A DNA stretch of 64,000 nt, from assembly GCA_964291315.2 (NCBI GenBank), contig OZ219753.1, positions 1,320,140-1,384,139 on the forward strand, read 5' to 3'. The notes under the pieces were generated by a model. The model had not been told where the DNA came from, ran no database searches, and was given only the letters and a program-made list of their open reading frames with translations. This DNA is from Candidatus Poribacteria bacterium. GTDB taxonomy: Bacteria; Poribacteria; WGA-4E; WGA-3G. The stretch's first letter is position 1. Each line of letters begins with the position of its first letter. A program made the translations under genes and the position numbers. Positions 6,683-20,528 of the stretch are shown piece by piece.

Positions 6683-8140
6683 TTAACCCTTCACAACCCC
6701 GACAGGGCGGAGGCGCGCTACACGACGCGAGAGACCGGCTTCGTCAACAACGCGAACCACTTCATCGACATCCTTGTATGCTTCTGGGACTTCTTCCTGA
6801 AGCGTGCGCCTGCCTTCAGCGCGCACATAGATACCTTGCGCCTCCAAATCCTTCTGAATGGAACGACCCTTTGTCAACGCGATCGCCTTTCGCCGGGAGA
6901 GAACTCTGCCCGCACCGTGACAGGTTGTCCCCCACGTCTCTGCCATCGCGCCGGGCTTACCGACAAGCACATAAGAGGCAGTGCCCATATCGCCAGGAAT
7001 CAGAACAGGTTGTCCAATTTTCTGGTATTTTTCGGGTATCTCTGGATGCCCCGCCGGAAATGCACGCGTTGCCCCTTTGCGATGGATAAATAACTCCCGT
7101 TCTTCTCCATCTACCGTGTGTTTTTCAAACTTCCCAATATTGTGGGCTACATCGTAGACCAGCTCTAAACCGAGCTCATCCGCTGTCGTTCCGAAAAACT
7201 GCATGAAGGTCTGGCGCACAAGGTGCATGATGCACTGCCGATTGTTCCATGCATAGTTCGCACCACACGCCATCGCAGCGATGTAGTCTTGTCCCTCAGG
7301 TGAATTGATTGGCGCTGAGGCAAGCTGCCGGTCGGGGAGAGTGATGCCGTATCTTTCAGCAACTTTAATCCAGCTTTTAACGTGTTCATCGCAAACCTGG
7401 TAACCGAAGCCACGCGAACCGGTATGAATCATCACACAGATGCTGCCCTCGCTGAGCCCCATCGCGTTAGCAGCTTCTCGGTAAAAAACGCGATCCACCG
7501 CTTGCACTTCAAGAAAGTGGTTACCCGACCCGAGCGTTCCGAGCTGATTCTTACCACGTTCTAAGGCGCGCCGGCTCGCAGCAGCGGCATCGGCGTGGTC
7601 TAGAAAACCTGTCGCCTCGGTAAAGTCGAGGTCACCGGCGTGTCCGTATTCACGCTCGATCGCCCACAGCGCACCTTTCTCTAACATCTGTCGTTCTTCT
7701 TGAAGGGTGAGCCGAATGTTGCCGCTTGAACCCACACCACACGGGATATTCTCAAACAGCTTGCCGACGAGTTCCCCGCGCTTCCCTTCAAGCTGCGAAA
7801 CATCAAGATTCGTTCGAATGAGTCGAACCCCGCAGTTGATGTCATACCCAATCCCGCCCGGAGAGACCACACCATCCGCTTGAGGATCTGTGGCAGCGAC
7901 ACCGCCGATAACGAACCCGTAACCCCAGTGCAAATCTGGCATCGCAAGCGAATGCTTGACAATACCCGGGAGATGCGCAACGTTCGCAACCTGCTGCAAC
8001 GCCTCGTCACTTTTTGCATGCTCAAGAAGCTTCTCGTTCGCATAGACAATACCATCAACCCGCATGCCCTTCATGTAGCTCTTCGGGATACGCCAACGGT
8101 ATTCGTCCAGCTTTTGGAGTGTTATGTTTTGTTGTGTCAT
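6683..8140 (-). CDS. rtcB: RNA-splicing ligase RtcB
   Basis: The ORF is full-length RtcB-like. Blocks read: VANVAHLPGIV, MPDLHWGYGF, GGIGYDINCG, GSGNHFLE, HTGSRGFG, HNI, CHGAGR. I used the ATG at 8140; an in-frame TTG at 8155 is the alternative start. Confidence 0.9.
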   Translation of the reverse strand: MTQQNITLQKLDEYRWRIPKSYMKGMRVDGIVYANEKLLEHAKSDEALQQVANVAHLPGIVKHSLAMPDLHWGYGFVIGGVAATDPQADGVVSPGGIGYDINCGVRLIRTNLDVSQLEGKRGELVGKLFENIPCGVGSSGNIRLTLQEERQMLEKGALWAIEREYGHAGDLDFTEATGFLDHADAAAASRRALERGKNQLGTLGSGNHFLEVQAVDRVFYREAANAMGLSEGSICVMIHTGSRGFGYQVCDEHVKSWIKVAERYGITLPDRQLASAPINSPEGQDYIAAMACGANYAWNNRQCIMHLVRQTFMQFFGTTADELGLELVYDVAHNIGKFEKHTVDGEERELFIHRKGATRAFPAGHPEIPEKYQKIGQPVLIPGDMGTASYVLVGKPGAMAETWGTTCHGAGRVLSRRKAIALTKGRSIQKDLEAQGIYVRAEGRRTLQEEVPEAYKDVDEVVRVVDEAGLSRRVARLRPVGVVKG

Positions 8141-8431: not shown

Positions 8432-9864
8432 ATGACTCTATCGAATAGGACATTAATACGCGGCGATAATCTACAGGCAATGCGGGAGTTCTCCGATATT
8501 TGTATCGACTTGATCGCTACCGACCCGCCCTTCAACTCCAAACGAGACTACTTCTTGCCATACAGAGCCGAGAAAGGTCAAAAATCTGATGCCCTCGTCA
8601 AAGCGTTTTCAGATACATGGACATGGGGATCGGAAGCAGAGAGCACCTATCAAGAACTACTCATCGATGCCGAGGAACAGGTCAGCAGCACGATTCAAGG
8701 CCTACGCCAATGCCTCAACGAAATACCTATGATGGCATACCTAGTTATGATGACGGTACGCATTGTAGAAATGCATCGCATTCTCAAGGAAACCGGCAGT
8801 CTTTACCTGCATTGTGATCCTACGGCAAGCCACTACCTCAAAATCATACTCGATGCCGTGTTCGGTACACAGAATTTTAAAAATGAAATTGTGTGGCATT
8901 ACAAACGGTGGACAGCCGCTTCTAGACATTTTCAAAAAATGCACGATGTGATCTTCTGGTATTCTAAAACGGACGCTCATACCTTTACACAACCGCTGCA
9001 ACCTTTTTCTGATGAATCATATATCGAAAACACAGTGCGCGGTTTTGTCGACGGTAAACTGGTCCGATTAAAGCACAAAGACGGCAACTACGTCTTGCGC
9101 AAAACCCAAAAAGAGGGGTCTTGATGCACGATGTCTGGCATGACATCAACTTTATCCCGCCCTCAAGCACGGAACGGGCAGGCTACCCTACACAGAAACC
9201 TGTCGAACTTTACAAACGCATTATACAAGCGTCCTCAAATGCGGGTGATCGGGTCTTAGACCCATTTACAGGTTGCGGGACAACGGCCATCGCAGCAGAA
9301 AGCTTGAATCGTCAATGGATAGGTATAGACCGCACCTACCTTGCCGTCGGGACTGTCGCCCAACAAATAGAGAAATACTTTCCGCACCTCCGTGACGACA
9401 TCACTATTACCGGAACACCTGAAAACGCCCCTCAAGCGTTAGACCTAGCACACAGAAACCCACAAGACTTCGCGGAATGGATTGTCACGCACGTATTGAA
9501 ATTTAAATCGAATGCTAAGAAAGGTGGCGATGGCGGTATAGACGGTATCCTAAGATTCCCAATCGGTAAAGTCAACGGGAGACGAGCGTTCGGGAAAGCG
9601 GTGGCACAAGTCAAGGGCGGTCAATACACGCTTGGAGATCTCCGCGATTTTAGAACAGCTATGCGAAATCAAGAAGCTGAATTAGGAGTCTTTGTCGCTA
9701 CAACACCGCCCACGCGCGGCATGAAACAGGAAATCGCACGCGCAGGACGCTATAAGCATCCTAAATATAAAATGGAAATACCGAGCTTGCAACACTATCA
9801 GATACAAGACTATTTCACCGGTAAACTGCCGCAATTGCCTCACGCTGAGAGGAACCTCTTATAG
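8432..9864 (+). pseudogene. beta-class N6/N4 DNA methyltransferase fused to a C-terminal Mrr-type (PD-(D/E)xK) nuclease domain, split by a frameshift
   Basis: ORF 8432-9124 carries motif IV (IATDPPFN). ORF 9121-9864 is in the -1 frame and carries DVWHDI, ERAGYPTQKP and motif I (VLDPFTGCGTT), followed by GGDGGIDGIL...VAQVKGG...GVFVATT, which is Mrr_cat-like. The second frame is open from 9058. One extra G in the GGGG run at 9115-9118 would fuse the two parts as ...KEGVLMHDVW. Confidence 0.75.
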
Positions 9865-9955: not shown

Positions 9956-10190
9956 AACGTACGGACACCTCTGGCGGATATTTTTTTTACCTATAACGTG
10001 AGTTTGAAAAAAGAGTGAGCAGGCCCTTTTGTAGCAGAACGGTTTCGGTTCCTCTGCGAGGGGCTTGTAGCATAGACTGTCAGTTTCCTGTACCTCTTCG
10101 GCGCTTCTCACACCACCTGTTAGGCTGTGCAAGTACTCTCACTATCCACAGCTGATCTCAGCAATTATCAAGCCAGCGTTACGTATATGA

Positions 10191-11003
10191 TTAATTGTCG
10201 GCTTTTAGGCGTTTTATTTCAGCCAATGCGTCTGCGAGCTCTGCGTCTGCAGCGGCTGCGCGTGCATCGGCTTGTTGTCGTGCGTCTGCCTCTGTGGCTG
10301 CCCTGGCATCGGCCTCTGCGGCCCGTGCATCAGCCTCTTGTCGTGCTTTTGCCTCTGCTTGTGCTCGTGCATCAGCCTCTTGTCGTGCCTTTGCCTCTGC
10401 GGCTGCGCGTGCATCGGCGTGTCTAACCCGTCTCTCCAAAGGCTCTAGCCACGCTGAACGAACAGGATCATACAACCCGAGAGCCCCATCACGCTCGCCT
10501 AACTCTAAACCCAGCACAACCGACGGCAGACGACCGTTCACGAAGCCTATCTCCTCATACACGCCATCAACAAGACGATACCCGAGAAAAGAAGGCGACA
10601 CCTCGCCATAAGGATCGTAAATATAATACTCGCGCACCCCAAGCACCGACGCATACAACTCACGCTTAGCAGTCAAGTCCTGCCGATAGGTGCTGCGACT
10701 CGCTAACTCTAAGATAAAATCAGGCGCCTGCCCCTCTTCCCAGACCCGATAGGTGCGCCGCTGCTTTTTACTCACCCCGAAGACAACAAACACATCTGGC
10801 GACACCGATTTCCTCGGGTTCCCCTCCTTATAATACATCATGAGATTGCCAGAGACATATGCGTCGTTGACATCTTGGAAGTGGTGCTCCAGCATCTGAA
10901 TGCAGTCGATCATAAGTTTTCTGTGTTTGTCGGTTTCTGCCATAGGTTTATCGTCCGATTCGGGATAGACGAGCGTTGGAGCGGCTTTTATTTTGCTACA
11001 CAT
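10191..11003 (-). CDS. Uma2/DUF820-family putative PD-(D/E)xK endonuclease with ARA-rich coiled-coil tail (copy 1)
   Basis: 270 aa. Blocks read: [61 protein letters not shown]. These fit the Uma2 D...E.. ..K layout. The tail is made of [14 protein letters not shown] heptads and ends in [14 protein letters not shown]. Confidence 0.75.
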   Translation of the reverse strand: MCSKIKAAPTLVYPESDDKPMAETDKHRKLMIDCIQMLEHHFQDVNDAYVSGNLMMYYKEGNPRKSVSPDVFVVFGVSKKQRRTYRVWEEGQAPDFILELASRSTYRQDLTAKRELYASVLGVREYYIYDPYGEVSPSFLGYRLVDGVYEEIGFVNGRLPSVVLGLELGERDGALGLYDPVRSAWLEPLERRVRHADARAAAEAKARQEADARAQAEAKARQEADARAAEADARAATEADARQQADARAAAADAELADALAEIKRLKADN

Positions 11004-11048
11004 AGGTCTGCCTCCTGCCTCTACTATCGTAATAAACTTATAGAATAA

Positions 11049-11077
11049 AGTATATCAGCAAAAGCTGGATATATCAA
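11049..11077 (-). promoter_or_regulatory. sigma70-type promoter of Uma2 copy 1
   Basis: On the minus strand: TTGATA (11077-11072), a 17-nt spacer, then TATACT (11054-11049). GGAGG lies 8 nt before the ATG. Confidence 0.55.
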
Positions 11078-11120
11078 GTGGCTGATCTCAATAATTATCA
11101 AGGTTGCGTTGGGTATATGA

Positions 11121-11912
11121 TTACGTGTCAGTTTTTAGGCGTTTGAGTTCAGCCAATGCGTCTGCGAGCTCTGCGTCTGCAGCGTCTGCGCGTGCATCGG
11201 CTTGTTGTCGTGCGTCTGCCTCTGTGGCTGCCCGTGCGTCTGCCTCTGCTGCCCGTGTTTCTGCGCGTTGTCGTGCTTTTGCCTCTGCTTGTGCCCGTGC
11301 ATCGGCTTCTTGTGCCCGTGCATCGGCGTGTCTAACCCGTCTCTCCAAAGGCTCCAGCCACACCGAACGCACCGGATCATACAACCCGAGAACCCCATCA
11401 CGCTCGCCTAACTCTAAACCCAGCACAACCGACGGCAGACGATCCCCCACAAAACCTATCTCCTCATACACACCATCAACAAGACGATACCCGAGAAAAG
11501 AAGGCGACACCTCACCATAAGGATCGTAAATGTAATACTCGCGCACCCCAAGCACCGACGCATACAACTCACGCTTAGCAGTCAAGTCCTGCCGATAGGT
11601 GCTGCGACTCGCTAACTCTAAGATAAAATCAGGCGCCTGCCCCTCTTCCCAGACCCGATAGGTGCGCCGCTGCTTTTTACTCACCCCGAAGACAACAAAC
11701 ACATCTGGCGACACCGATTTCCTCGGGTTCCCCTCCTCATAATACAGCATGAGATTGCCAGAGACATATGCGTCGTTGACATCTTGGAAGTGGTGCTCCA
11801 GCATCTGAATGCAGTCGATCATAAGTTTTCTGTGTTTGTCGGTTTCTGCCATAGGTTTATCGTCCGATTCGGGATAGACGAGCGTTGGAGCGGCTTTTAT
11901 TTTGCTACACAT
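11121..11912 (-). CDS. Uma2/DUF820-family putative endonuclease with coiled-coil tail (copy 2)
   Basis: 263 aa. The N-terminal ~190 aa are almost identical to copy 1, and the tail is one heptad shorter. Confidence 0.75.
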   Translation of the reverse strand: MCSKIKAAPTLVYPESDDKPMAETDKHRKLMIDCIQMLEHHFQDVNDAYVSGNLMLYYEEGNPRKSVSPDVFVVFGVSKKQRRTYRVWEEGQAPDFILELASRSTYRQDLTAKRELYASVLGVREYYIYDPYGEVSPSFLGYRLVDGVYEEIGFVGDRLPSVVLGLELGERDGVLGLYDPVRSVWLEPLERRVRHADARAQEADARAQAEAKARQRAETRAAEADARAATEADARQQADARADAADAELADALAELKRLKTDT

Positions 11913-11957
11913 AGGTCTGCCTCCTGCCTCTACTATCGTAATGAACTTATAGAATAA

Positions 11958-11986
11958 AGTATATCAGCAAAAGCTGGATATATCAA
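11958..11986 (-). promoter_or_regulatory. sigma70-type promoter of Uma2 copy 2
   Basis: The same TTGATA-17-TATACT element is conserved in the repeated spacer. Confidence 0.55.
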
Positions 11987-12029
11987 GTGGCTGATCTCAA
12001 TAATTATCAAGGTTGCGTTGGGTATATGA

Positions 12030-12800
12030 TTACGTGTCAGTTTTTAGGCGTTTGAGTTCAGCCAATGCGTCTGCGAGCTCTGCGTCTAAAGCGTCTGCGC
12101 GTGCATCGGCTTGTTGTCGTGCGTCTGCCTCTGCTTGTGCTCGTGCATCAGCCTCTTGCCGGGCTCTTGCCTCTGCTTGCGCCCGTGCATCGGCTTCTTG
12201 TGCTCGTGCATCGGCGTGTCTAACCCGTCTCTCCAAAGGCTCCAGCCACGCTGAACGAACAGGATCATAAAATCCCAGTCGCCCCGCACGCTCGCCTAAC
12301 TCTAAACCCAGCACAACCGACGGCAGACGACCGTTCACGAAGCCTATCTCCTCATACACGCCATCAACAAGACGATACCCGAGAAAAGAAGGCGACACCT
12401 CACCATAAGGATCGTAAATGTAATACTCGCGCACCCCAAGCACCGAGGCATACAACTCACGCTTAGCAGTCAAGTCCTGCCTATACGTGCTGCGACTCGC
12501 TAACTCTAAGATAAAATCAGGTGCCTGCCCCTCTTCCCAGACCCGATAGGTGCGCCGCTGCTTTTTACTCACCCCGAAGACAACAAACACATCTGGCGAC
12601 ACCGATTTCCTCGGGTTGCCCTCCTCATAATACAGCATGAGATTGCCAGAGACATATGCGTCGTTGACATCTTGGAAGTGGTGCTCCAGCATCTGAATGC
12701 GGTCGATCATAAGTTTTCTGTGTTTGTCGGTTTCTGCCATAGGTTTATCGTCCGATTCGGGATAGACGAGCGTTGGAGCGGCTTTTATTTTGCTACACAT
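12030..12800 (-). CDS. Uma2/DUF820-family putative endonuclease with coiled-coil tail (copy 3)
   Basis: 256 aa with the same domain and the shortest tail. Confidence 0.75.
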   Translation of the reverse strand: MCSKIKAAPTLVYPESDDKPMAETDKHRKLMIDRIQMLEHHFQDVNDAYVSGNLMLYYEEGNPRKSVSPDVFVVFGVSKKQRRTYRVWEEGQAPDFILELASRSTYRQDLTAKRELYASVLGVREYYIYDPYGEVSPSFLGYRLVDGVYEEIGFVNGRLPSVVLGLELGERAGRLGFYDPVRSAWLEPLERRVRHADARAQEADARAQAEARARQEADARAQAEADARQQADARADALDAELADALAELKRLKTDT

Positions 12801-12845
12801 AGGTCTGCCTCCTGCCTCTACTATCGTAATGAACTTATAGAATAA

Positions 12846-12874
12846 AGTATATCAGCAAAAGCTGGATATATCAA
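12846..12874 (-). promoter_or_regulatory. sigma70-type promoter of Uma2 copy 3
   Basis: The same TTGATA-17-TATACT element is conserved in the repeated spacer. Confidence 0.55.
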
Positions 12875-12917
12875 GTGGCTGATCTCAATAATTATCAAGG
12901 TTGCGTTGGGTATATGA

Positions 12918-13751
12918 TTACGTGTCAGTTTTTAGGCGTTTGAGTTCAGCCAATGCGTCTGCGAGCTCTGCGTCTGCAGCGGCTGCGCGTGCATCGGCGT
13001 GTTGTCGTGCTTTTGCCTCTGCTTGTGCCCTGGCATCAGCCTCTTGTCGTGCTTTTGCCTCTGTGGCTGCGCGTGCATCGGCCTCTGCGGCCCTGGCATC
13101 GGCGTGTTGTCGTGCTTTTGCCTCTGCTTGCGCCCGTGCATCGGCTTCTTGTGCTCGTGCATCGGCAGTCTGCAGCCATACCGAACGAACAGGGTCATAA
13201 AATCCCAGTCGCCCCGCACGCTCGCCTAACTCTAAACCCAGCACAAGCGACGGCAGACGACCTTCCAAGAAGCCTATCTCCTCATACGCACCGTCCACAA
13301 GACGATACCCGAGAAAAGAAGGCGACACCTCGCCATAAGGATCGTAAATATAATACTCACGCACCCCAAGCACCGATGCATACAACTCACGCTTAGCAGT
13401 CAAGTCCTGCCTGTAGGTGCTTGGACTCGCCAACTCTAAGACAAAATTAGGCGCGTGTCCCTCTTCCCAGACGCGATAGGTGCGCCGATCCTGTTTGCTG
13501 ACGCCGAAGACAACGAACACATCCGGAGACACGGATTTCTTAGGGTTTCCCTCTTCATAATACAGCATCAGATTGCCAGAGACATATACATCGTTGACCT
13601 TGCGGAAGTGGTGATTGAGTTTCTGAATGCAATCCATCATGAGGCTTCTGTGTTTATCAGTTTCTGCCATAGGTTTACCGTCCGATTCGGGATAGAGGAT
13701 CGTTGGGTCTGGGTAGACCAACGTTGGAACGGCTTTTATGCTTCTCGGCAT
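12918..13751 (-). CDS. Uma2/DUF820-family putative endonuclease with coiled-coil tail (copy 4, divergent)
   Basis: 277 aa. The N-terminus is divergent and carries an internal duplication (PTLVYPDPTILYPESDGKP). It lacks the EPLERRVRH linker. Its upstream spacer is short (76 nt) and unrelated to the others. Confidence 0.7.
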   Translation of the reverse strand: MPRSIKAVPTLVYPDPTILYPESDGKPMAETDKHRSLMMDCIQKLNHHFRKVNDVYVSGNLMLYYEEGNPKKSVSPDVFVVFGVSKQDRRTYRVWEEGHAPNFVLELASPSTYRQDLTAKRELYASVLGVREYYIYDPYGEVSPSFLGYRLVDGAYEEIGFLEGRLPSLVLGLELGERAGRLGFYDPVRSVWLQTADARAQEADARAQAEAKARQHADARAAEADARAATEAKARQEADARAQAEAKARQHADARAAAADAELADALAELKRLKTDT

Positions 13752-13827
13752 GGCACTACCTCCTGTCTCTCTTGTTGTAATGAACTTATTGTATAGAGTT
13801 TATCCATACTGTTTGATCACGGAATCA

Positions 13828-14661
13828 TTATTTTTCAGTTTTCAGGCGTTTTATTTCAGCCAATGCGTCTGCGAGCTCTGCGTCTGCAGCTGCTGCGCGT
13901 GCATCGGCTTGTTGTCGTGCTTTTGCCTCTGCTTGTGCCCTGGCATCAGCCTCTTGTCGTGCTTTTGCCTCTGTGGCTGCCCGTGCATCGGCCTCTGCGG
14001 CCCTGGCATCAGCCTCTTGTCGTGCTTTTGCCTCTGCTTGCGCCCTGGCATCAGCTTCTTGTGCCCGTGCATCAGCGTGTCTAACCTGTTTATCCAAAGG
14101 CTCCAGCCATACCGAACGAACAGGATCATACAACCCGAGAACCCCATCACGCTCGCCTAACTCTAAACCCAGCACAAGCGACGGCAGACGATCCCCCGCA
14201 AAATCTATCTCCTCATACACACCATCAACAAGACGATACCCGAGAAAAGAGGGCGACACCTCGCCATAAGGATCGTAAATGTAATACTCACGCACCCCAA
14301 GCACCGAGGCATACAACTCACGCTTAGCAGTCAAGTCCTGCCGATAGGTGCTGCGACTCGCTAACTCTAACACAAAATCGGGCGCATGTCCCTCTTCCCA
14401 GACCCGATAGGTGCGCCGATCCTTTTTGCTGACCCCGAAGACAACAAACACATCTGGCGATACCGATTTCCTCGGGTTCCCCTCCTCATAATACAGCATG
14501 AGATTGCCAGAGACATATGCGTCGTTGACATCTTGGAAGTGGTGCTCCAGCATCTGAATGCAGTCGATCATAAGTTTTCTGTGTTTGTCGGTTTCTGCCA
14601 TAGGTTTATCGTCCGATTCGGGATAGACGAGCGTTGGAGCGGCTTTTATTTTGCTACACAT
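13828..14661 (-). CDS. Uma2/DUF820-family putative endonuclease with coiled-coil tail (copy 5)
   Basis: 277 aa. It carries the [19 protein letters not shown] variant shared with copy 6. Confidence 0.75.
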
Positions 14662-14706
14662 AGGTCTGCCTCCTGCCTCTACTATCGTAATAAACTTATA
14701 GAATAA

Positions 14707-14735
14707 AGTATATCAGCGAAAGCTGGATATATCAA
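14707..14735 (-). promoter_or_regulatory. sigma70-type promoter of Uma2 copy 5
   Basis: The same TTGATA-17-TATACT element is conserved in the repeated spacer. Confidence 0.55.
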
Positions 14736-14778
14736 GTGGCTGATCTCAATAATTATCAAGGTTGCGTTGGGTATATGA

Positions 14779-15591
14779 TTACGTGTCAGTTTTTAGGCGT
14801 TTGAGTTCAGCCAATGCGTCTGCGAGCTCTGCGTCTAAAGCTTGTGCGCGTGCATCAGCCTCTTGCCGGGCTCTTGCCTCTGCGTCTGCGCGTGCATCGG
14901 CGTGTTGTCGTGCTTTTGCCTCTGCTTGTGCTCGGGCATCAGCCTCTTGCCGGGCTCTTGCCTCTGCTTGCGCCCTGGCATCGGCTTCTTGTGCCCGTGC
15001 ATCAGCGTGTCTAACCTGTTTATCCAAAGGCTCCAGCCATACCGAACGAACAGGATCATACAACCCGAGAACCCCATCACGCTCGCCTAACTCTAAACCT
15101 AGCACAAGCGACGGCAGACGACCGTTCACGAAGCCTATCTCCTCATACACGCCATCAACAAGACGATACCCGAGAAAAGAAGGCGACACCTCACCATAAG
15201 GATCGTAAATATAATACTCACGCACCCCAAGCACCGACGCATACAACTCCCGCTTAGCAGTCAAGTCCTGCCGATAGGTGCTGCGACTCGCTAACTCTAA
15301 CACAAAATCGGGAGCGTGTCCCTCTTCCCAGACCCGATAGGTGCGCCGATCCTTTTTGCTGACCCCGAAGACAACAAACACATCTGGCGATACCGATTTC
15401 CTGGGGTTCCCCTCCTCATAATACATCATGAGATTGCCAGAGACATATGCGTCGTTGACATCTTGGAAGTGGTGCTCCAGCATCTGAATGCAGTCGATCA
15501 TAAGTTTTCTGTGTTTGTCGGTTTCTGCCATAGGTTTATCGTCCGATTCGGGATAGACGAGCGTTGGAGCGGCTTTTATTTTGCTACACAT
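14779..15591 (-). CDS. Uma2/DUF820-family putative endonuclease with coiled-coil tail (copy 6)
   Basis: 270 aa. Its upstream spacer matches the other units only up to about 15653, and the -10 element is degraded there. Confidence 0.75.
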
Positions 15592-15659: not shown

Positions 15660-16130
15660 TTATGGTTGGACTATTCGCTGTTGTTTGAGGGTCTCTATAT
15701 CTGCTGCCAGCGCCTCGATCTGCTTTTCGAAGATGCGTTCTTTTCTAATGCGCCACATCATTATCACCTGTGGCAGCCCTATAACGACCCCTATTATTAC
15801 CATCAGCCACGTCATCATTTTTTCTATACCACCGATGCGTTCATTTACGCCGTCAATGCGTCCTTCTACGCCGTCAATGCGCCCATTTACAGCGTCTATG
15901 CGCCCTTCTACACCCTCGATGCGCCCGTTTACAGCGTCTATGCGCCCATTAAGGGCAGCGACTTGAGTCTTTAGGGTCACGATGTCGGCTCTTATCGGCT
16001 TCAGCTCCTCGCTGAGCTCCTCTTTGATGATCAACCGTATCTTATTCAGATCGGCATCCGTTAACGCACAAAACACAGGCGAGGCAATCACAAAAAAGAG
16101 CACAGAGAGTATAAATACCTTTTGCATCAC
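15660..16130 (-). CDS. small bitopic membrane protein with heptad repeats (hypothetical)
   Basis: 156 aa. It has an N-terminal signal/TM segment (VFILSVLFFVIASPVFCA) and six consecutive 7-aa repeats (RIDAVNG RIEGVEG RIDAVNG RIDGVEG RIDGVNE RIGGIEK). A TM helix (WLMVIIGVVIGLPQVIMMW) and a short coiled C-terminus follow. Confidence 0.6.
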   Translation of the reverse strand: MMQKVFILSVLFFVIASPVFCALTDADLNKIRLIIKEELSEELKPIRADIVTLKTQVAALNGRIDAVNGRIEGVEGRIDAVNGRIDGVEGRIDGVNERIGGIEKMMTWLMVIIGVVIGLPQVIMMWRIRKERIFEKQIEALAADIETLKQQRIVQP

Positions 16131-16568: not shown

Positions 16569-19500
16569 ATGAAAAACGTAATAACGCAAAAAATCGCCTT
16601 AAGCCTGCTGATAACGCTTGTATTAGCGTTCGGGGTGCCGGGAGGCGCAGACGCGATTACCAGGTTCACCAGAACCTCCAGCGACTACCCATTGGTAGCA
16701 CCTCAAACAGACTTCACCATTCGGTTCGGAGTCACCTTTACCTCCACCTCCACCGATTCAGAGACGGCTCGGATTACAGTATCGGGAGGCTCTCTCAAGA
16801 AAGTAGGAAACTTTGACGCTTCTGGAACTACCCAAGATTTAACGGAGGGAGGAACCGCCGGCAAAGGACAGCTCCTCAGCTCTCACACATTAACCCTGAC
16901 TTCCGGCGCAGCAGGCAAGATGAGCGTTACAATCTCGGATCGAACCTCCGGTGACAAAGCCAACGATTTGGTCTTTACGATCTACGTATCACCCGCTTTT
17001 ACAAGTACTAACGCTCCGGCCTTCAGCAGCAGCTCTGTTACGACCGCTAGAGGGGATGTAAAATTTTCAACCTCAACGCCGCTAACCCTTAGCGGGGAGC
17101 ACATCCGATTAAACTATAGGGTTACAGGTAACGGATCCGTCTTTATCAAAGAAGATGGCAAGGACGCAGGTACCACTTCAAAAAACCTGACCACATCTTC
17201 CGCGGCACCTGTCTATGTTCGTATGGGGGGAGGTACTAACAGAATAGCTATCTCTATTGTTGGTCAAAGAGCTAGCTCAACCATACAGGCTACCTATATC
17301 TATGGGGAGGAAACGGTACAAATAGTATCTGGCGATAAGCAGACCGGCGCAGTAGGCTCGGCTCTCGGCCAGCCGTTCGTTGTTAGGCTGACAGATACTG
17401 CGAATCGGCCTATTTCTGGCGTAAACGTTACATTTGATCCAGAAACAACAGATAATGACGAAGCTGCAATATTCATAAAAGATCTCGGTACGCCCGACGA
17501 TTTGCATGTTGCTTATGGTGCAGGCACTACTCCATTCACCACTACCCAAGGTCAAGCCGTAGTAAAAACCAATGCCAACGGCGAAGCCAAGGCTGTTTGG
17601 GTACTGCACCGGACTGCGCATGCCCTTGAGAATGTTGCCCATGCTCACCTGAGTGGGCGTTCTTCGGGAAGTAATGCTTCAGTTGCTTTTCAGGCAAGGG
17701 CTGTAGCAAAAAACCCGGTCGTGAGCTCTATTGTGATAGCATCCGGCAACGGGCAGAGCGCCGATCAATACGGAATCATCGCCAACCCTTTGGTGGTTAG
17801 CGTCCGAGATTCGGCCGGCCACTTGGTTAAAGGACAAACAGTGCTGTTCATCGCGTTAAGTGGCGGGACACTCAGTAACAGCTCAGACGAAGAGCCAGGG
17901 GCAGCCTCTGGCAGTAGCAGTGGTGCTAGTGTAACAGTCACAACAGATAACAGGGGTCAAGCCGGTGTTCGCTATGCGCCGTCGCAAGTCGGCGGAAGCC
18001 AGCAGGTGCGGGCGAGCATTACAGGGAGCGCCAGCTCCGTAACTTTTACTGTCAACGGCACACGAGGCACAACCCCAACTACACCTACAACTACACCCGA
18101 TTCCACCACACCCTCGACCCCAACCACACCTCCGCCGACGGACGGCGGGATTGTCGCAAGTCGCCTCAGAGTGGTGAGCGGTAACCAGCAGACCGGTGCA
18201 CCAGGGGCAGTGCTCAACCCGTTTGTCGTTCAACTCTTAGATACAGACGGCGACGGCATTGATCTCGTGGAGATCGATTTTGAAGTTGTATCCGGGAGCG
18301 GCACGCTCTCTGATAGCATGGATCAGACCGATGAGAGTGGCAATGCACGCTCAACGCTCACCCTCGGCAGTTCCGCTGGCACCGTAACCGTCCGGGTAAG
18401 CGTAGATTCCGATGAAATCGGGGGCCGTTCCATTTCCCCAGTCACCTTCACTGCAACGGCAGAGGTAACAACATTGCCACCCGATGCAATCAACATCGTC
18501 GGCGATGAAACGTTGACCGGCGATATCAACGAAGAGATAGAGCTCACCGTCCAAGTTGTAGATGCAGATGAAGATGGGGTAGACTTCGAACTCGTCACGT
18601 TCACCGTCACTGAAGGAAACGGGAGACTTCGCCCCAGTAGAGATCGAACCGACGAGGATGGCAATGCATCGACCTTTTTCACGCCTACCTCCCCGGGAAC
18701 GTTGGAAGTTCGAGCCAATTCAGGCGACCTGGATCCTGTCACTTTCACGATCACAACCTCCGATCCGCCTGACGCGATTACGATTATCTCCGGAAACAAC
18801 CAGAGCGGTAGACCCGGGGCCAGACTTGCCAACCCGTTTGTCGTTAGAGTGACTGATGCCCTCGACGACCCAGTTGCTGGGGTGACAGTCTCATTTTCGG
18901 TGACCGCAGGCGGCGGTAGCCTCTCCACCCAGAGCGCAACCACGAATAGCAACGGACGCGCACAGGCAGTGCTGACCCTCGGCGCTGACTCCGGCAATAA
19001 CACCGTCACTGCACGTGTCACAGGGCTGACGCCTGTTACCTTCAGGGCGATGTCGGGGGCAGAAGTGCACGTGGCTGCCGCACAGCGCCCACCGATGTAC
19101 TGGGTTGGTAGAGCCCAAGGCACGCTCCATCGCCTCGTCGGCGCCGCAGTTGAGAACCTCCTGCCGAATGTCACGGGTGTCACGGACATCGCAGTGGATG
19201 CAGCACAGGGAGCTCTCTATTTTGCTGTGAAAGTAGGTGAAAACAGAGGTTCCATCCGGAGTTCAGCCCTCAATGGACAGAACGTCAGGACTATCAAGAC
19301 GTTGACGGCTGTCCCCAACGGAATCGCCGTTGACGCGGCAAGCCAGACGGTCTATTGGACAAACTCCCGCGGCCGAATCCAATCTATCCCTGCAACGGGG
19401 AGCTCCAAGCTCACCAACGAAGTACAGAATATCTCTAACCCGAGCGCAATTGCGGTTTACAACCAATTTGTCTATTGGGTAGAGTTGAACCGGCTCCGCA

Positions 19501-20528
19501 GGGCCAGTCTCACTGCCACACCGCAGACGGCGGAAACGCTTGCAACGGCAGATGGCAATATTGTGAGCATCGCCGTCGCCAAAGGCAAAATTTACTGGAT
19601 CGAAAGCGGTGTAGGCGGACGGGGGACTCTCAAACGTTCCAACCTCGCAGGCAAGAACGTCGAAACCCTTAAAACCTTCGCCTCCAATGTACCCACTTCG
19701 GTAGCAGTGGATAGTTCAGACAACAAAATTTACTGGACGAAGGGCTCAGGTACAATCCAGCGCTCGAACCTCGCGGGTAAGTGGACGAAAAACATCGTTA
19801 CCGGATTGGCTAACCCGAGTGCTATCGCGCTTGGCACAATAACAGACAACCCGACTCCTGCCCAGCCGGCATCTTTGATATCAGAGGGGACAACGCCTAA
19901 AAAACCAACCACCTCCAAATACGATGTCAATGGCGATGGCAGCGTGGACGATCAGGATGTCACCCTTGTAGCACTCGCCCTTGACGGAAAATATAACGCA
20001 AAATACGACGTTAACGGTGACAAAGTGGTGGACGCAAAAGACCTCCGCGCAGTCATCAATAACACAGAGGACACTTCCGCAGCACCCGCAATCAATCTAG
20101 ACCTGAAGGCACTAGACATCGATTTCGATCGGGTTCAGGCACAGATTGAGAGCGTACTGGTATCCGACGATATGTCGCCCTCAACGCGACGCACATTGAT
20201 GTATCTCCAACACCTCTTGGCAACAGCGCGGCCCTCGGAGACAACGTTGTTAACCAACTATCCGAACCCGTTCAACCCAGAAACTTGGATACCGTATCAA
20301 TTGGCGGACAGCACCGAGGTGCGGATTAACATCTACGATGCCCAAGGCATCTTGATACGGGCATTGAACCTCGGGCATCAAACCGCGGGCTACTACACCC
20401 ACCGGAGTCGCGCCGCGTATTGGGACGGACGCAACGCCCTCGGCGAACCGGTTGCGAGCGGTATCTACTTCTACCAGCTCCAAACCGATACAACCTCCCT
20501 TATGCGGAAAATGGTTATCTTGAAGTAG
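16569..20528 (+). CDS. large secreted multidomain adhesin-like protein (Big_1 Ig-like repeats, YWTD-type beta-propeller, dockerin-like repeats, C-terminal T9SS/FlgD-type sorting domain)
   Basis: 1319 aa with a signal peptide. It has repeated Big_1-like modules (IVSGDKQTG..GSALGQPFVVRLTD, VVSGNQQTGAPGAVLNPFVVQLLD, IISGNNQSGRPGARLANPFVVRVTD) and a PT-rich linker. Blades follow with YWTN/YWVE/IYWIE/IYWTK. Next come two DVNGDGSVDDQD / DVNGDKVVDAKD calcium-binding repeats. The tail is NYPNPFNPETWIPYQL...GIYFYQLQ. Confidence 0.8.
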   Translation: MKNVITQKIALSLLITLVLAFGVPGGADAITRFTRTSSDYPLVAPQTDFTIRFGVTFTSTSTDSETARITVSGGSLKKVGNFDASGTTQDLTEGGTAGKGQLLSSHTLTLTSGAAGKMSVTISDRTSGDKANDLVFTIYVSPAFTSTNAPAFSSSSVTTARGDVKFSTSTPLTLSGEHIRLNYRVTGNGSVFIKEDGKDAGTTSKNLTTSSAAPVYVRMGGGTNRIAISIVGQRASSTIQATYIYGEETVQIVSGDKQTGAVGSALGQPFVVRLTDTANRPISGVNVTFDPETTDNDEAAIFIKDLGTPDDLHVAYGAGTTPFTTTQGQAVVKTNANGEAKAVWVLHRTAHALENVAHAHLSGRSSGSNASVAFQARAVAKNPVVSSIVIASGNGQSADQYGIIANPLVVSVRDSAGHLVKGQTVLFIALSGGTLSNSSDEEPGAASGSSSGASVTVTTDNRGQAGVRYAPSQVGGSQQVRASITGSASSVTFTVNGTRGTTPTTPTTTPDSTTPSTPTTPPPTDGGIVASRLRVVSGNQQTGAPGAVLNPFVVQLLDTDGDGIDLVEIDFEVVSGSGTLSDSMDQTDESGNARSTLTLGSSAGTVTVRVSVDSDEIGGRSISPVTFTATAEVTTLPPDAINIVGDETLTGDINEEIELTVQVVDADEDGVDFELVTFTVTEGNGRLRPSRDRTDEDGNASTFFTPTSPGTLEVRANSGDLDPVTFTITTSDPPDAITIISGNNQSGRPGARLANPFVVRVTDALDDPVAGVTVSFSVTAGGGSLSTQSATTNSNGRAQAVLTLGADSGNNTVTARVTGLTPVTFRAMSGAEVHVAAAQRPPMYWVGRAQGTLHRLVGAAVENLLPNVTGVTDIAVDAAQGALYFAVKVGENRGSIRSSALNGQNVRTIKTLTAVPNGIAVDAASQTVYWTNSRGRIQSIPATGSSKLTNEVQNISNPSAIAVYNQFVYWVELNRLRRASLTATPQTAETLATADGNIVSIAVAKGKIYWIESGVGGRGTLKRSNLAGKNVETLKTFASNVPTSVAVDSSDNKIYWTKGSGTIQRSNLAGKWTKNIVTGLANPSAIALGTITDNPTPAQPASLISEGTTPKKPTTSKYDVNGDGSVDDQDVTLVALALDGKYNAKYDVNGDKVVDAKDLRAVINNTEDTSAAPAINLDLKALDIDFDRVQAQIESVLVSDDMSPSTRRTLMYLQHLLATARPSETTLLTNYPNPFNPETWIPYQLADSTEVRINIYDAQGILIRALNLGHQTAGYYTHRSRAAYWDGRNALGEPVASGIYFYQLQTDTTSLMRKMVILK

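Follow-up and report, generated by a model that had tools for sequence, protein, structure and literature searches.

Uma2-family genes of a Poribacteria bacterium with C-terminal tails that differ in length by whole heptads

Six consecutive Uma2-family genes of Candidatus Poribacteria bacterium encode proteins in which a putative nuclease head is followed by a repetitive C-terminal tail, and the tails differ from one another by whole heptads. The genes lie within a 64,000-nucleotide stretch (the window) of contig OZ219753.1 from the GenBank assembly GCA_964291315.2. The tail is probably a coiled-coil stalk of variable length by which two (or more) nuclease subunits are held together, and its heptad frame appears to be kept by selection.

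The six-gene array and its putative nuclease heads

The genes, their parts and the spacers are listed below; the distance that closes each gene entry runs from the head's final conserved Trp to the first Leu of the cap and is the structurally relevant length.

10191–11003, minus strand: Uma2 copy 1, 270 aa; head 10449–11003, linker LEPLERRVRH 10419–10448, 8 heptad units 10251–10418, cap and tip (19 residues) 10194–10250; 70 residues (10 heptads)
11004–11120, minus strand: 117-nt spacer, near-identical at 11913–12029, 12801–12917 and 14662–14778
11121–11912, minus strand: Uma2 copy 2, 263 aa; 7 heptad units 11181–11327, cap 11124–11180; 63 residues (9 heptads)
12030–12800, minus strand: Uma2 copy 3, 256 aa; 6 heptad units 12090–12215, cap (19 residues) 12033–12089; 56 residues (8 heptads)
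12918–13751, minus strand: Uma2 copy 4, 277 aa, of a divergent lineage; linker LQT 13167–13175, 9 heptad units 12978–13166, cap 12921–12977; 70 residues (10 heptads)
13752–13827: deviating spacer of 76 nt upstream of copy 4, different from the 117-nt spacers
13828–14661, minus strand: Uma2 copy 5, 277 aa; 9 heptad units 13888–14076, cap 13831–13887; 77 residues (11 heptads)
14779–15591, minus strand: Uma2 copy 6, 270 aa; 8 heptad units 14839–15006, cap 14782–14838; 70 residues (10 heptads)

All six open reading frames are intact, and the protein lengths, which an earlier sequence-only reading had given correctly, all equal 4 modulo 7. Each 117-nt spacer carries a promoter-like TTGATA-17-TATACT element and a GGAGG ribosome-binding site before the next gene. 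The same reading had stated that the unit periods of 930, 909, 888 and 951 bp differ by multiples of 21 nt. This holds for those four, since the identical 117-nt spacers merely pass on the protein lengths, but a fifth period of 910 bp had been omitted; it results from the shorter spacer in front of copy 4, with 76 nt instead of 117 nt. The description of the genes as near-identical likewise fits copies 1, 2, 3, 5 and 6, whose heads differ at 17–39 of 558 nt, but not copy 4, which differs at 71–79 of 558. Copy 4 arrives at 277 aa by another route: seven N-terminal residues are duplicated in tandem (PTLVYPD|PTILYPE), and the linker is LQT, which is 7 residues shorter than the 10-residue LEPL(ERR/DKQ)VRH of the other copies. 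Its head is 83% identical to that of P0065, a paralogue with 3 heptads in the same genome, and its tail is a mosaic of units identical to ones in copies 1, 3 and 5. P0002 and P0005 are further paralogues in this genome. Long plus-strand open reading frames antisense to the tails (e.g. 10195–10611 and 14762–15199) encode low-complexity Ala/Ser/Cys/Arg sequence and were set aside as by-products of the GCN-rich repeat.

The heads are predicted to be PD-EXX-K nucleases of the Uma2/COG4636 type. They match the Uma2 model PF05685 with 71–74 bits (cut-off 27; E ~1e-20), and homologues are annotated 'Uma2 family endonuclease' by NCBI and JGI. The AlphaFold2 head, with pLDDT mostly above 90, has a PD-(D/E)XK α/β fold like that of TT1808 or Ava_3926, and Foldseek matched it with probability 1.0 to 6okh, 9y1l, 3ot2 and 1wdj (target-normalised TM-scores 0.54–0.71). 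Across an alignment of 72 sequences P69, E99 (within LELAS) and K113 never vary, and D70 is conserved in at least 90% of them; these residues align with the PD, E-I-L-S and K of 6okh. From this alignment D70, E99 and K113 would form a rearranged PD-EXX-K active site of the kind described by Feder & Bujnicki 2005, with putative catalytic roles. The head thus resembles the TT1808-type members of Uma2/DUF820/COG4636 by HMM, fold and these three residues, whereas the solved Uma2 structures (150–190 residues) lack the tail of the array proteins. No biochemical characterisation of any family member was found in the papers searched.

Four PADLOC models named PDC-S03 match the head only (E = 1e-11 to 1e-12), which denotes membership of a candidate list and is not evidence for a defence function. 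The neighbourhoods of 78 related loci share no conserved gene, and the largest group comprises 15 of them with no fixed orientation; a reading as a two-gene toxin-antitoxin or restriction-modification system was rejected for this reason. Uma2/DUF820 genes have been described as solitary and highly proliferated, with occasional tandem cassettes (Feder & Bujnicki 2005, PMC551604; Makarova 2009, PMC2701414). The present array of six consecutive genes exceeds the four reported for the Uma2/COG4636 family.

Tail anatomy and the heptad rule

At the DNA level each tail is a whole number of 21-nt units, with 8, 7, 6, 9, 9 and 8 units in copies 1 to 6, and Tandem Repeats Finder returned periods of 21, 42 and 63. 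Two types of unit are present, ADARAxx and EAKARQx, and they are followed by a Leu-rich cap that consists of (A/L), ten further residues and (L/I)KRLK. The tails had been described as built of Ala, Arg, Asp, Glu and Gln only; this is not strictly so, as 18 of 329 residues in the repeat region (5.5%) are K, T or H. The proposal that the number of heptads is the main variable is borne out, in that it is the most conspicuous structural variable among the copies (8–11 heptads).

The tails are 47% Ala and about 40% charged. In the heptad profile of the repeats, position a is Ala (48%) or Arg (46%) and position d is Ala (61%) or Glu (34%), so the repeat core is not classically hydrophobic. Leu, Val and Ile at a and d are confined to the head-proximal linker (L0, L3 and V7 after the conserved Trp) and to the cap (L0, L7 and L10 in the series L0, A3, L4, L7, L10). 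These hydrophobic positions share the heptad frame of the repeats.

The heptad rule extends to relatives of the array genes. In 207/207 Poribacteria-type homologues, which represent 179 unique tails, Trp and the first cap Leu lie a multiple of 7 residues apart (range 14–77), and chance is therefore excluded. When heptad numbers were mapped on a neighbour-joining tree of the heads (195 sequences), at least 86 changes were inferred and none was off-phase. The number of heptads ranges from 3 to 11 over the genome's ten paralogues and from 2 to 11 within the clade. In an Acidobacteriota-type clade 102 of the 104 unique tails (10–66 residues) are in a single phase and the other two are each displaced by +1, such that phase is kept in 309/311 tails over both clades.

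Strong tail repeats are present in 26 of 150 more distant representatives (clustering at ≤50% identity); their unit sequences are unrelated, and the period is 7, 14, 21 or 28 in all 26. With the Poribacteria head HMM as an anchor, the 150 fell into several phases (modulo 7: 19 at 3, about 10 at 0 and 6 at 4), as this anchor cannot be relied on for such distant sequences; when one of these clades was searched separately, the result was the 102/104 reported above. By contrast, the C-terminal tip past the cap (14–19 residues) varies freely in length, by 1–5 residues, and a 5-aa repeat is present only in this tip. Duplications of 7 aa were found also in the non-repetitive linker, e.g. VEEQVKQ.

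Identical 21-mers occur at different positions in different copies, which supports the suggested slippage or recombination inside the repeat and points to recombination, slippage or gene conversion of whole units. The heads are also mosaic between copies; together with the shared 21-mers, this indicates active recombination or gene conversion. The units are only 74–84% identical at the DNA level, and type-A units have a pS of 0.50 against a pN of 0.15, the signature of purifying selection; pS is 0.12 among the five similar heads. The units therefore predate the gene duplications and have been conserved as peptide. Since 207/207 and 102/104 tails are in phase, at least 86 changes include no off-phase one, pS exceeds pN in the units and 7-aa duplications occur in the non-repetitive linker, the register appears to be kept by selection, as the sequence-only reading had proposed, and not to be a by-product of slippage.

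Structure of the tail and competing explanations

Disorder of the tails had been named as an outcome that would overturn a coiled-coil reading, and the model argues against disorder. The AlphaFold2 monomer of copy 5 has, after the PD-(D/E)XK head, one continuous 88-residue helix (residues 189–276) at pLDDT 95–98. The seven-residue periodicity of a coiled coil runs along this whole helix, as seen in the unit parsing, in the 207/207 and 102/104 tails and in the periods of 7n. Hydrophobic a and d positions are present in the linker and cap, with Ala/Arg and Ala/Glu in their place along the repeats. Compared with solved structures, the tail alone gave chance matches only (E ≥1), and no solved structure with such a tail was found.

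In the reading that we favour, each protein would have a nuclease head followed by one uninterrupted α-helix of about 68–89 residues in a single heptad frame, made up in order of a hydrophobic head-proximal turn, n Ala/Arg-Ala/Glu heptads and the Leu-rich cap. As a coiled coil of variable length, the helix would build a multi-headed nuclease out of two (or more) subunits. The number of heptads would shift, within genes as well as from one paralogue to another, by unequal recombination, slippage and gene conversion among 21-nt units that have diverged moderately, and changes that break the frame between linker and cap would be purged by selection. Each genome would thereby hold graded stalk lengths, in steps of about 1 nm per heptad.

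We infer oligomerisation through the tail. The one piece of outside support is that DUF820 proteins of Synechocystis interact with themselves and with paralogues in yeast two-hybrid assays (PMC2779905), and these contacts may be mediated by the head. An in-register parallel homodimer would place like charges opposite each other at the Arg(a) and Glu(d) positions. Antiparallel a-d′ complementarity was set aside as evidence: its best shift is 0 for odd n and +1 for even n, and it supports no unique model because the alternating 14-residue pattern alone yields this odd/even result.

The length of the stalk may serve as a ruler or as a partner-sorting code, in keeping with the earlier suggestion that it could set pairing specificity or the spacing of nuclease heads, because partners of equal length can satisfy both hydrophobic ends at once. 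In an extended and unlikely form of this idea, the Leu cap must meet the head-proximal turn or the head of the partner, so that only paralogues of equal length pair, and the genome would keep a set of orthogonal two-headed nucleases that act as DNA calipers with about 1 nm per heptad and are diversified by repeat recombination.

A somewhat unlikely alternative to the coiled-coil stalk is a monomeric single α-helix (SAH) spacer, in which a stiff, charged Ala/Arg/Glu helix would hold the Leu cap at a set distance. The cap would then be a docking helix for a partner or for the head of another subunit, and heptad steps would change reach and not pairing. The continuous, high-confidence helix of the monomer model is consistent with this, as are the absence of a hydrophobic a/d core from the repeats and the dependence of the best antiparallel stagger on odd or even n. 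Ladders from i to i+4, Glu(d)-Arg(a) and Arg(g)-Glu(d), are also present, and Arg(a) and Glu(d) could form intrahelical salt bridges as in SAH domains. Such a spacer, however, gives no structural reason for a strict quantum of 7 residues, which turn a straight helix by about 20 degrees, and yet tails of both clades keep phase and every independent repeat period is 7n. SAH domains are rich in E, K and R, so that 47% Ala is atypical, and classical hydrophobic residues occupy a and d of the linker and cap in the frame of the repeats.

It is very unlikely that the heptad steps are a mutational by-product, with tolerant low-complexity tails gaining or losing whole units by slippage or unequal crossover without selection on register. 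The Tandem Repeats Finder periods, the 21-mers identical between copies and the mosaic heads would be expected on such an account. The DNA identity of the units and their pS and pN values, however, mark them as peptides under conservation and not as fresh slippage products. Against it also stand the primary 7-aa duplications in the non-repetitive linker, the 7n periods of unrelated units in 26/26 distant representatives, the absence of off-phase indels among the 86 or more changes, next to a tip that varies by 1–5 residues, and the two-letter alphabets at a and d.

Read evidence came from Logan unitigs, which are short, none spanning a whole tail; no joint over the whole array was found among them at 100% identity. 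The entire copy-3 tail is represented in run X1 by exact unitigs of single-copy depth, with a depth of ~996 in the part specific to copy 3 against 961 in the single-copy flank and about sevenfold depth in shared segments; unitigs specific to copy 4 have a depth of ~600. The array is multi-copy by read depth. In sample X2 a form of copy 3 shorter by 42 nt (2 heptads) was found at single-copy depth, with the joint 12099>12142. The concern that the length differences are assembly noise is thus partly addressed, through the copy-3 tail. An artefact in which the array or its length differences stem from a collapsed or expanded repeat would fit the shortness of the unitigs but is extremely improbable given the six intact open reading frames, these depths and the same quantised lengths in hundreds of independent assemblies.

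Comparison with known systems and significance

The cytoplasmic domains of bacterial chemoreceptors (MCPs) reportedly fall into heptad length classes from 24H to 44H, a scheme said to go back to Alexander and Zhulin in 2007. As in the Uma2 tails, the long helical stalk gains or loses whole heptads between homologues, with the register conserved across a large family. In MCPs, however, each indel has a symmetric partner in the antiparallel hairpin and the length classes are old and stable, whereas the Uma2 tail is a single helix that changes rapidly by way of its tandem repeat units (at least 86 changes among 195 sequences), and its length varies between paralogues of one genome and between samples.

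In the central conserved region of HsdS of type I restriction systems, the number of TAEL repeats, which distinguishes EcoR124I from EcoR124II, sets the length of the spacer in the DNA target. In both systems an enzyme that acts on DNA (putatively so for Uma2) has a helical spacer built of short tandem repeats that vary in number, and the TAEL repeats are a precedent for repeat number as a ruler. The HsdS unit, of 4 residues instead of 7, lies between two recognition domains of the same chain, and its effect on function has been demonstrated.

Alanine-rich coiled coils include the alacoil and the alanine zipper of Lpp, a periplasmic ruler. These share with the Uma2 tail the Ala at heptad core positions, and in them heptad length sets a physical distance; unlike them, half of the a/d positions in the Uma2 tail are Arg or Glu and the protein is a predicted cytoplasmic nuclease. 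The tail resembles ER/K SAH domains as a long, isolated and highly charged helix in which positions i and i+4 bear opposite charges, and differs from them in its Ala content, its strict heptad phase and its hydrophobic a/d ends. No mention of a coiled coil or of a heptad-quantised C-terminal extension was found in the Uma2 papers that were searched, and the word 'coiled' occurs 0 times in PMC551604.

Uma2/COG4636 is among the most proliferated of the uncharacterised bacterial nuclease families; cyanobacterial genomes have dozens of copies each, and Poribacteria and Acidobacteriota also have many. It was predicted to be a nuclease twenty years ago, and to our knowledge no function has been assigned to it since. 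The strictly heptad-phased stalk, its rapid evolution in length and the conserved cap at its end provide handles on a large part of the family. With more than 300 tails, at least 86 length changes and only two tails off-phase, the family also offers a clean natural dataset in which selection keeps a helical register while tandem-repeat recombination alters length.

Array architecture and tail units

The array consists of six tandem Uma2 genes, numbered by rising coordinate.

Uma2 genes of the array
Copy 1: 10191-11003, minus strand, 270 aa
Copy 2: 11121-11912, minus strand, 263 aa
Copy 3: 12030-12800, minus strand, 256 aa
Copy 4: 12918-13751, minus strand, 277 aa
Copy 5: 13828-14661, minus strand, 277 aa
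Copy 6: 14779-15591, minus strand, 270 aa

All six lengths are 4 mod 7 and all six proteins match Pfam Uma2 (PF05685) at 71-74 bits (cut-off 27 bits); the genes are ordinary members of the family. The heads also match the PADLOC candidate family PDC-S03. Four of the five intergenic spacers are near-identical 117-nt segments, each with a promoter-like TTGATA-17-TATACT and a GGAGG ribosome-binding site, while the remaining one, upstream of copy 4, is unlike the rest and is 76 nt long, therefore the unit periods are 930, 909, 888, 910 and 951 bp. The sequence-only reading had given four of these periods correctly but left out that of 910 bp.

In each protein the conserved motif DPVRSxW is followed by a linker, then by consecutive 7-aa units and by a cap, which is (A/L), ten residues and (L/I)KRLK, then three further residues. 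The linker reads LEPL(ERR/DKQ)VRH except in copy 4, where it is LQT. The units are of two types, ADARAxx and EAKARQx, with 8, 7, 6, 9, 9 and 8 per tail in copies 1-6. As had been proposed, the tails of all six copies parse into 7-aa/21-nt units without remainder at the protein and DNA levels; Tandem Repeats Finder gives periods of 21, 42 and 63. Residue counts over the 329 repeat positions are A 154, R 51, D 36, Q 36, E 34, K 10, T 5 and H 3. The distance from the last conserved Trp of the head to the first cap Leu, which divided by seven is the heptad number, is 70, 63, 56, 70, 77 and 70 residues in copies 1-6. On the plus strand, ORFs of 138-145 aa lie antisense to the tails (10195-10611, 11104-11520 and 14762-15199) and translate as Ala/Ser/Cys/Arg low-complexity sequence; these are most probably a side effect of the GCN-rich repeat rather than genes.

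Heptad phase among homologues

The named sources and related loci found in the homologue search were all Candidatus Poribacteria, with protein lengths grouping at 223, 230, 237, 244, 251, 265, 272 and 286 aa. When 120 homologues, the Uma2 ORFs of 78 related genome loci and those of the window were pooled, the Trp-to-cap distance was a multiple of seven in 207 of 207 sequences (179 unique tails, 14 to 77 residues). Fitch parsimony on a neighbour-joining head tree of 195 sequences gave at least 86 changes in heptad number, none off-phase; the tree is rough, but the changes plainly number in the dozens. Past the cap, the C-terminal tip varies freely (14-19 residues), and the non-repetitive linker too shows primary duplications of 7 aa, e.g. 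LQPLEKQVKQ-VEEQVKQ.

Several paralogues with differing heptad numbers are present per genome, at least 10 in this one (3-11 heptads). Among the 78 loci the Uma2 gene is usually solitary and no conserved neighbour gene was found. In the sole other tandem array, at locus L016 (8389-10732), the three Uma2 genes carry 3, 6 and 6 heptads; tails of unequal length in one array are therefore not peculiar to the window.

A second clade, the relatives of homologue P0137, is from Acidobacteriota or Blastocatellia wherever source names exist. Of its 104 unique tails, 102 fall in a single phase (10, 17, ... 66 residues, i.e. 3 mod 7), and the two exceptions, each +1, are related to one another. The heptad-stepped tails claimed for the array are confirmed and reach well past the window. 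Nearly all of the best 150 distant representatives, clustered at ≤50% identity, have an E/A/R/Q-rich tail with a terminal Leu zipper such as AEAELARLRAELERLR. Strong internal tail repeats, with unrelated unit sequences, were found in 26 of them, with periods of 7 (10 cases), 14 (12), 21 (2) and 28 (2) and no others. The family-wide phase, the 7n periods and the linker duplications argue that the helix register is under selection, beyond inheritance from a 21-nt slippage unit.

Divergence, tail exchange and variation between samples

The heads of copies 1, 2, 3, 5 and 6 differ at 17-39 of 558 nt, and that of copy 4 differs from the others at 71-79 of 558 nt. Shared variants in the heads are arranged in blocks, a mosaic that indicates gene conversion. 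Head pN/pS is 0.20-0.27, therefore the genes are under purifying selection. Type-A units within tails have a pS of 0.50 and a pN of 0.15, whereas pS between the five similar heads is only 0.12, and the peptide ADARAQA is encoded by eight different 21-mers. The units thus predate the duplication of the genes, with conservation at the peptide level; the same values rule out fresh slippage copies.

Copy 4 reaches 277 aa by its own route, with a 21-nt tandem duplication in the N-terminal part of the head (13695-13751; PTLVYPD then PTILYPE) and a linker of 6 nt (QT) in place of 27 nt (EPLDKQVRH). Among the 120 homologues, the duplication is common only to P0065, a paralogue in the same genome with a tail of only 3 heptads, to which the copy 4 head is 83% identical (copy 5, 74%). 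The duplication marks copy 4 as a separate lineage that either came into the array or was converted there. Some 21-mers of the copy 4 tail recur unchanged as units in copies 3, 5 and 1, therefore paralogues exchange tails. This exchange, the unit pS and pN and the family-wide phase support the proposal that tails change by recombination or slippage while selection keeps the register.

Sequencing runs X1-X4 were searched as Logan unitigs. In X1, depth is ~961 in the single-copy flank, ~6900-7200 in segments common to several copies and ~600 in copy-4-specific unitigs, and exact unitigs cover the whole copy-3 tail (copy-specific part at ~996); therefore the multi-copy array and the copy-3 tail sequence are present in reads. 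In X2, which has the same organism code and is a different sample, copy-3-specific bins are empty and a unitig joins 12099 to 12142, an in-frame 42-nt (2-heptad) deletion absent throughout the window, at a depth of 3450 against 3331 in the single-copy flank. An X4 contig lacks 93 nt and carries a 9-nt insertion at 10317-10411, a net in-frame loss of 84 nt (4 heptads), also in a form absent from the window. These variants thus indicate variation between samples in heptad quanta. Two further X1 unitigs, one matching from 13825 on after 255 nt of unrelated sequence and one skipping 44 nt downstream of copy 1 (10014-10059), suggest more paralogous loci elsewhere in the genome with the same 3' flank as the array unit.

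The array is surrounded by housekeeping genes (ALAD, RtcB, PPDK and a Pup ligase) and adjoins a frameshifted methyltransferase-Mrr fusion.

Other genes near the array
8432-9124 and 9121-9864, plus strand, N6/N4 DNA methyltransferase and Mrr_cat/NA-iREase1 nuclease fusion, split by a frameshift (G-tract 9114-9117)
15660-16130, minus strand, 156-aa protein directly upstream of the array (tandem repeat 15835-15950)
16569-20528, plus strand, 1319-aa protein (features read from translation)

The frameshift is seen in X1 unitigs and is therefore not an assembly error. Either +A at 9113 (X3) or +G at 9114 (~40% of X2 depth) restores one ORF of ~477 aa, and the frameshift may be homopolymer phase variation or strain polymorphism. 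In the 156-aa protein a hydrophobic N-terminal segment is combined with six 7-aa repeats (NGRIDAV, NGRIEGV, EGRIDAV, NGRIDGV, EGRIDGV and NERIGGI; DNA period 21 nt). The protein also holds a transmembrane-like segment, is helical in its C-terminal region and gives weak sub-threshold matches to the DUF7310 and XhlA coiled-coil families; its gene is a second heptad-repeat gene beside the array, unrelated to the Uma2 copies. The 1319-aa protein has a signal-peptide-like start, repeated Ig-like segments, a YWTD-like repeat region, DVNGDG dockerin-like motifs and a sorting-domain-like C-terminal end.

Predicted structure of the tail

AlphaFold2 modelled copy 5 from a 72-sequence alignment (mean pLDDT 88) as an alpha/beta head and a single uninterrupted helix at residues 189 to 276 (pLDDT 95-98). 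The head matches four known Uma2/DUF820 structures, 6okh, 9y1l, 3ot2 and 1wdj (Foldseek probability 1.0), all without the tail, and no solved-structure relative of the tail alone was found. The conserved head residues D70, E99 and K113 fit the PD-EXX-K site of Feder & Bujnicki (PMC551604).

Heptad profile of 179 tails, with Trp as anchor
a: Ala 48%, Arg 46%
b: Gln, Glu
c: polar
d: Ala 61%, Glu 34%
e: Glu, Ala, Asp
f: mixed
g: Arg, Ala, Glu

The hydrophobic residues of the linker (L0, L/P3, V/A7) and cap (L0, A3, L4, L/I7, L10) are in the same heptad frame, therefore the tail ends resemble a coiled coil of the classical kind. Between them the core is Ala/Arg-Ala/Glu and could just as well provide intrahelical salt bridges (i to i+4). 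A putative coiled coil is plausible, against the alternative of a single-alpha-helix ruler.

COG4636/Uma2 has been described as a predicted nuclease, erratically distributed among genomes and in part tandemly duplicated (PMC551604), and as a likely solo toxin forming paralogue cassettes (PMC2701414); self-interaction and paralogue-paralogue interaction were seen in yeast two-hybrid screens (PMC2779905). Nothing was found in the literature on a coiled-coil or heptad-quantised tail in this family, and the Uma2 stalk, heptad-quantised and fast-changing in length, appears to be a feature undescribed so far.
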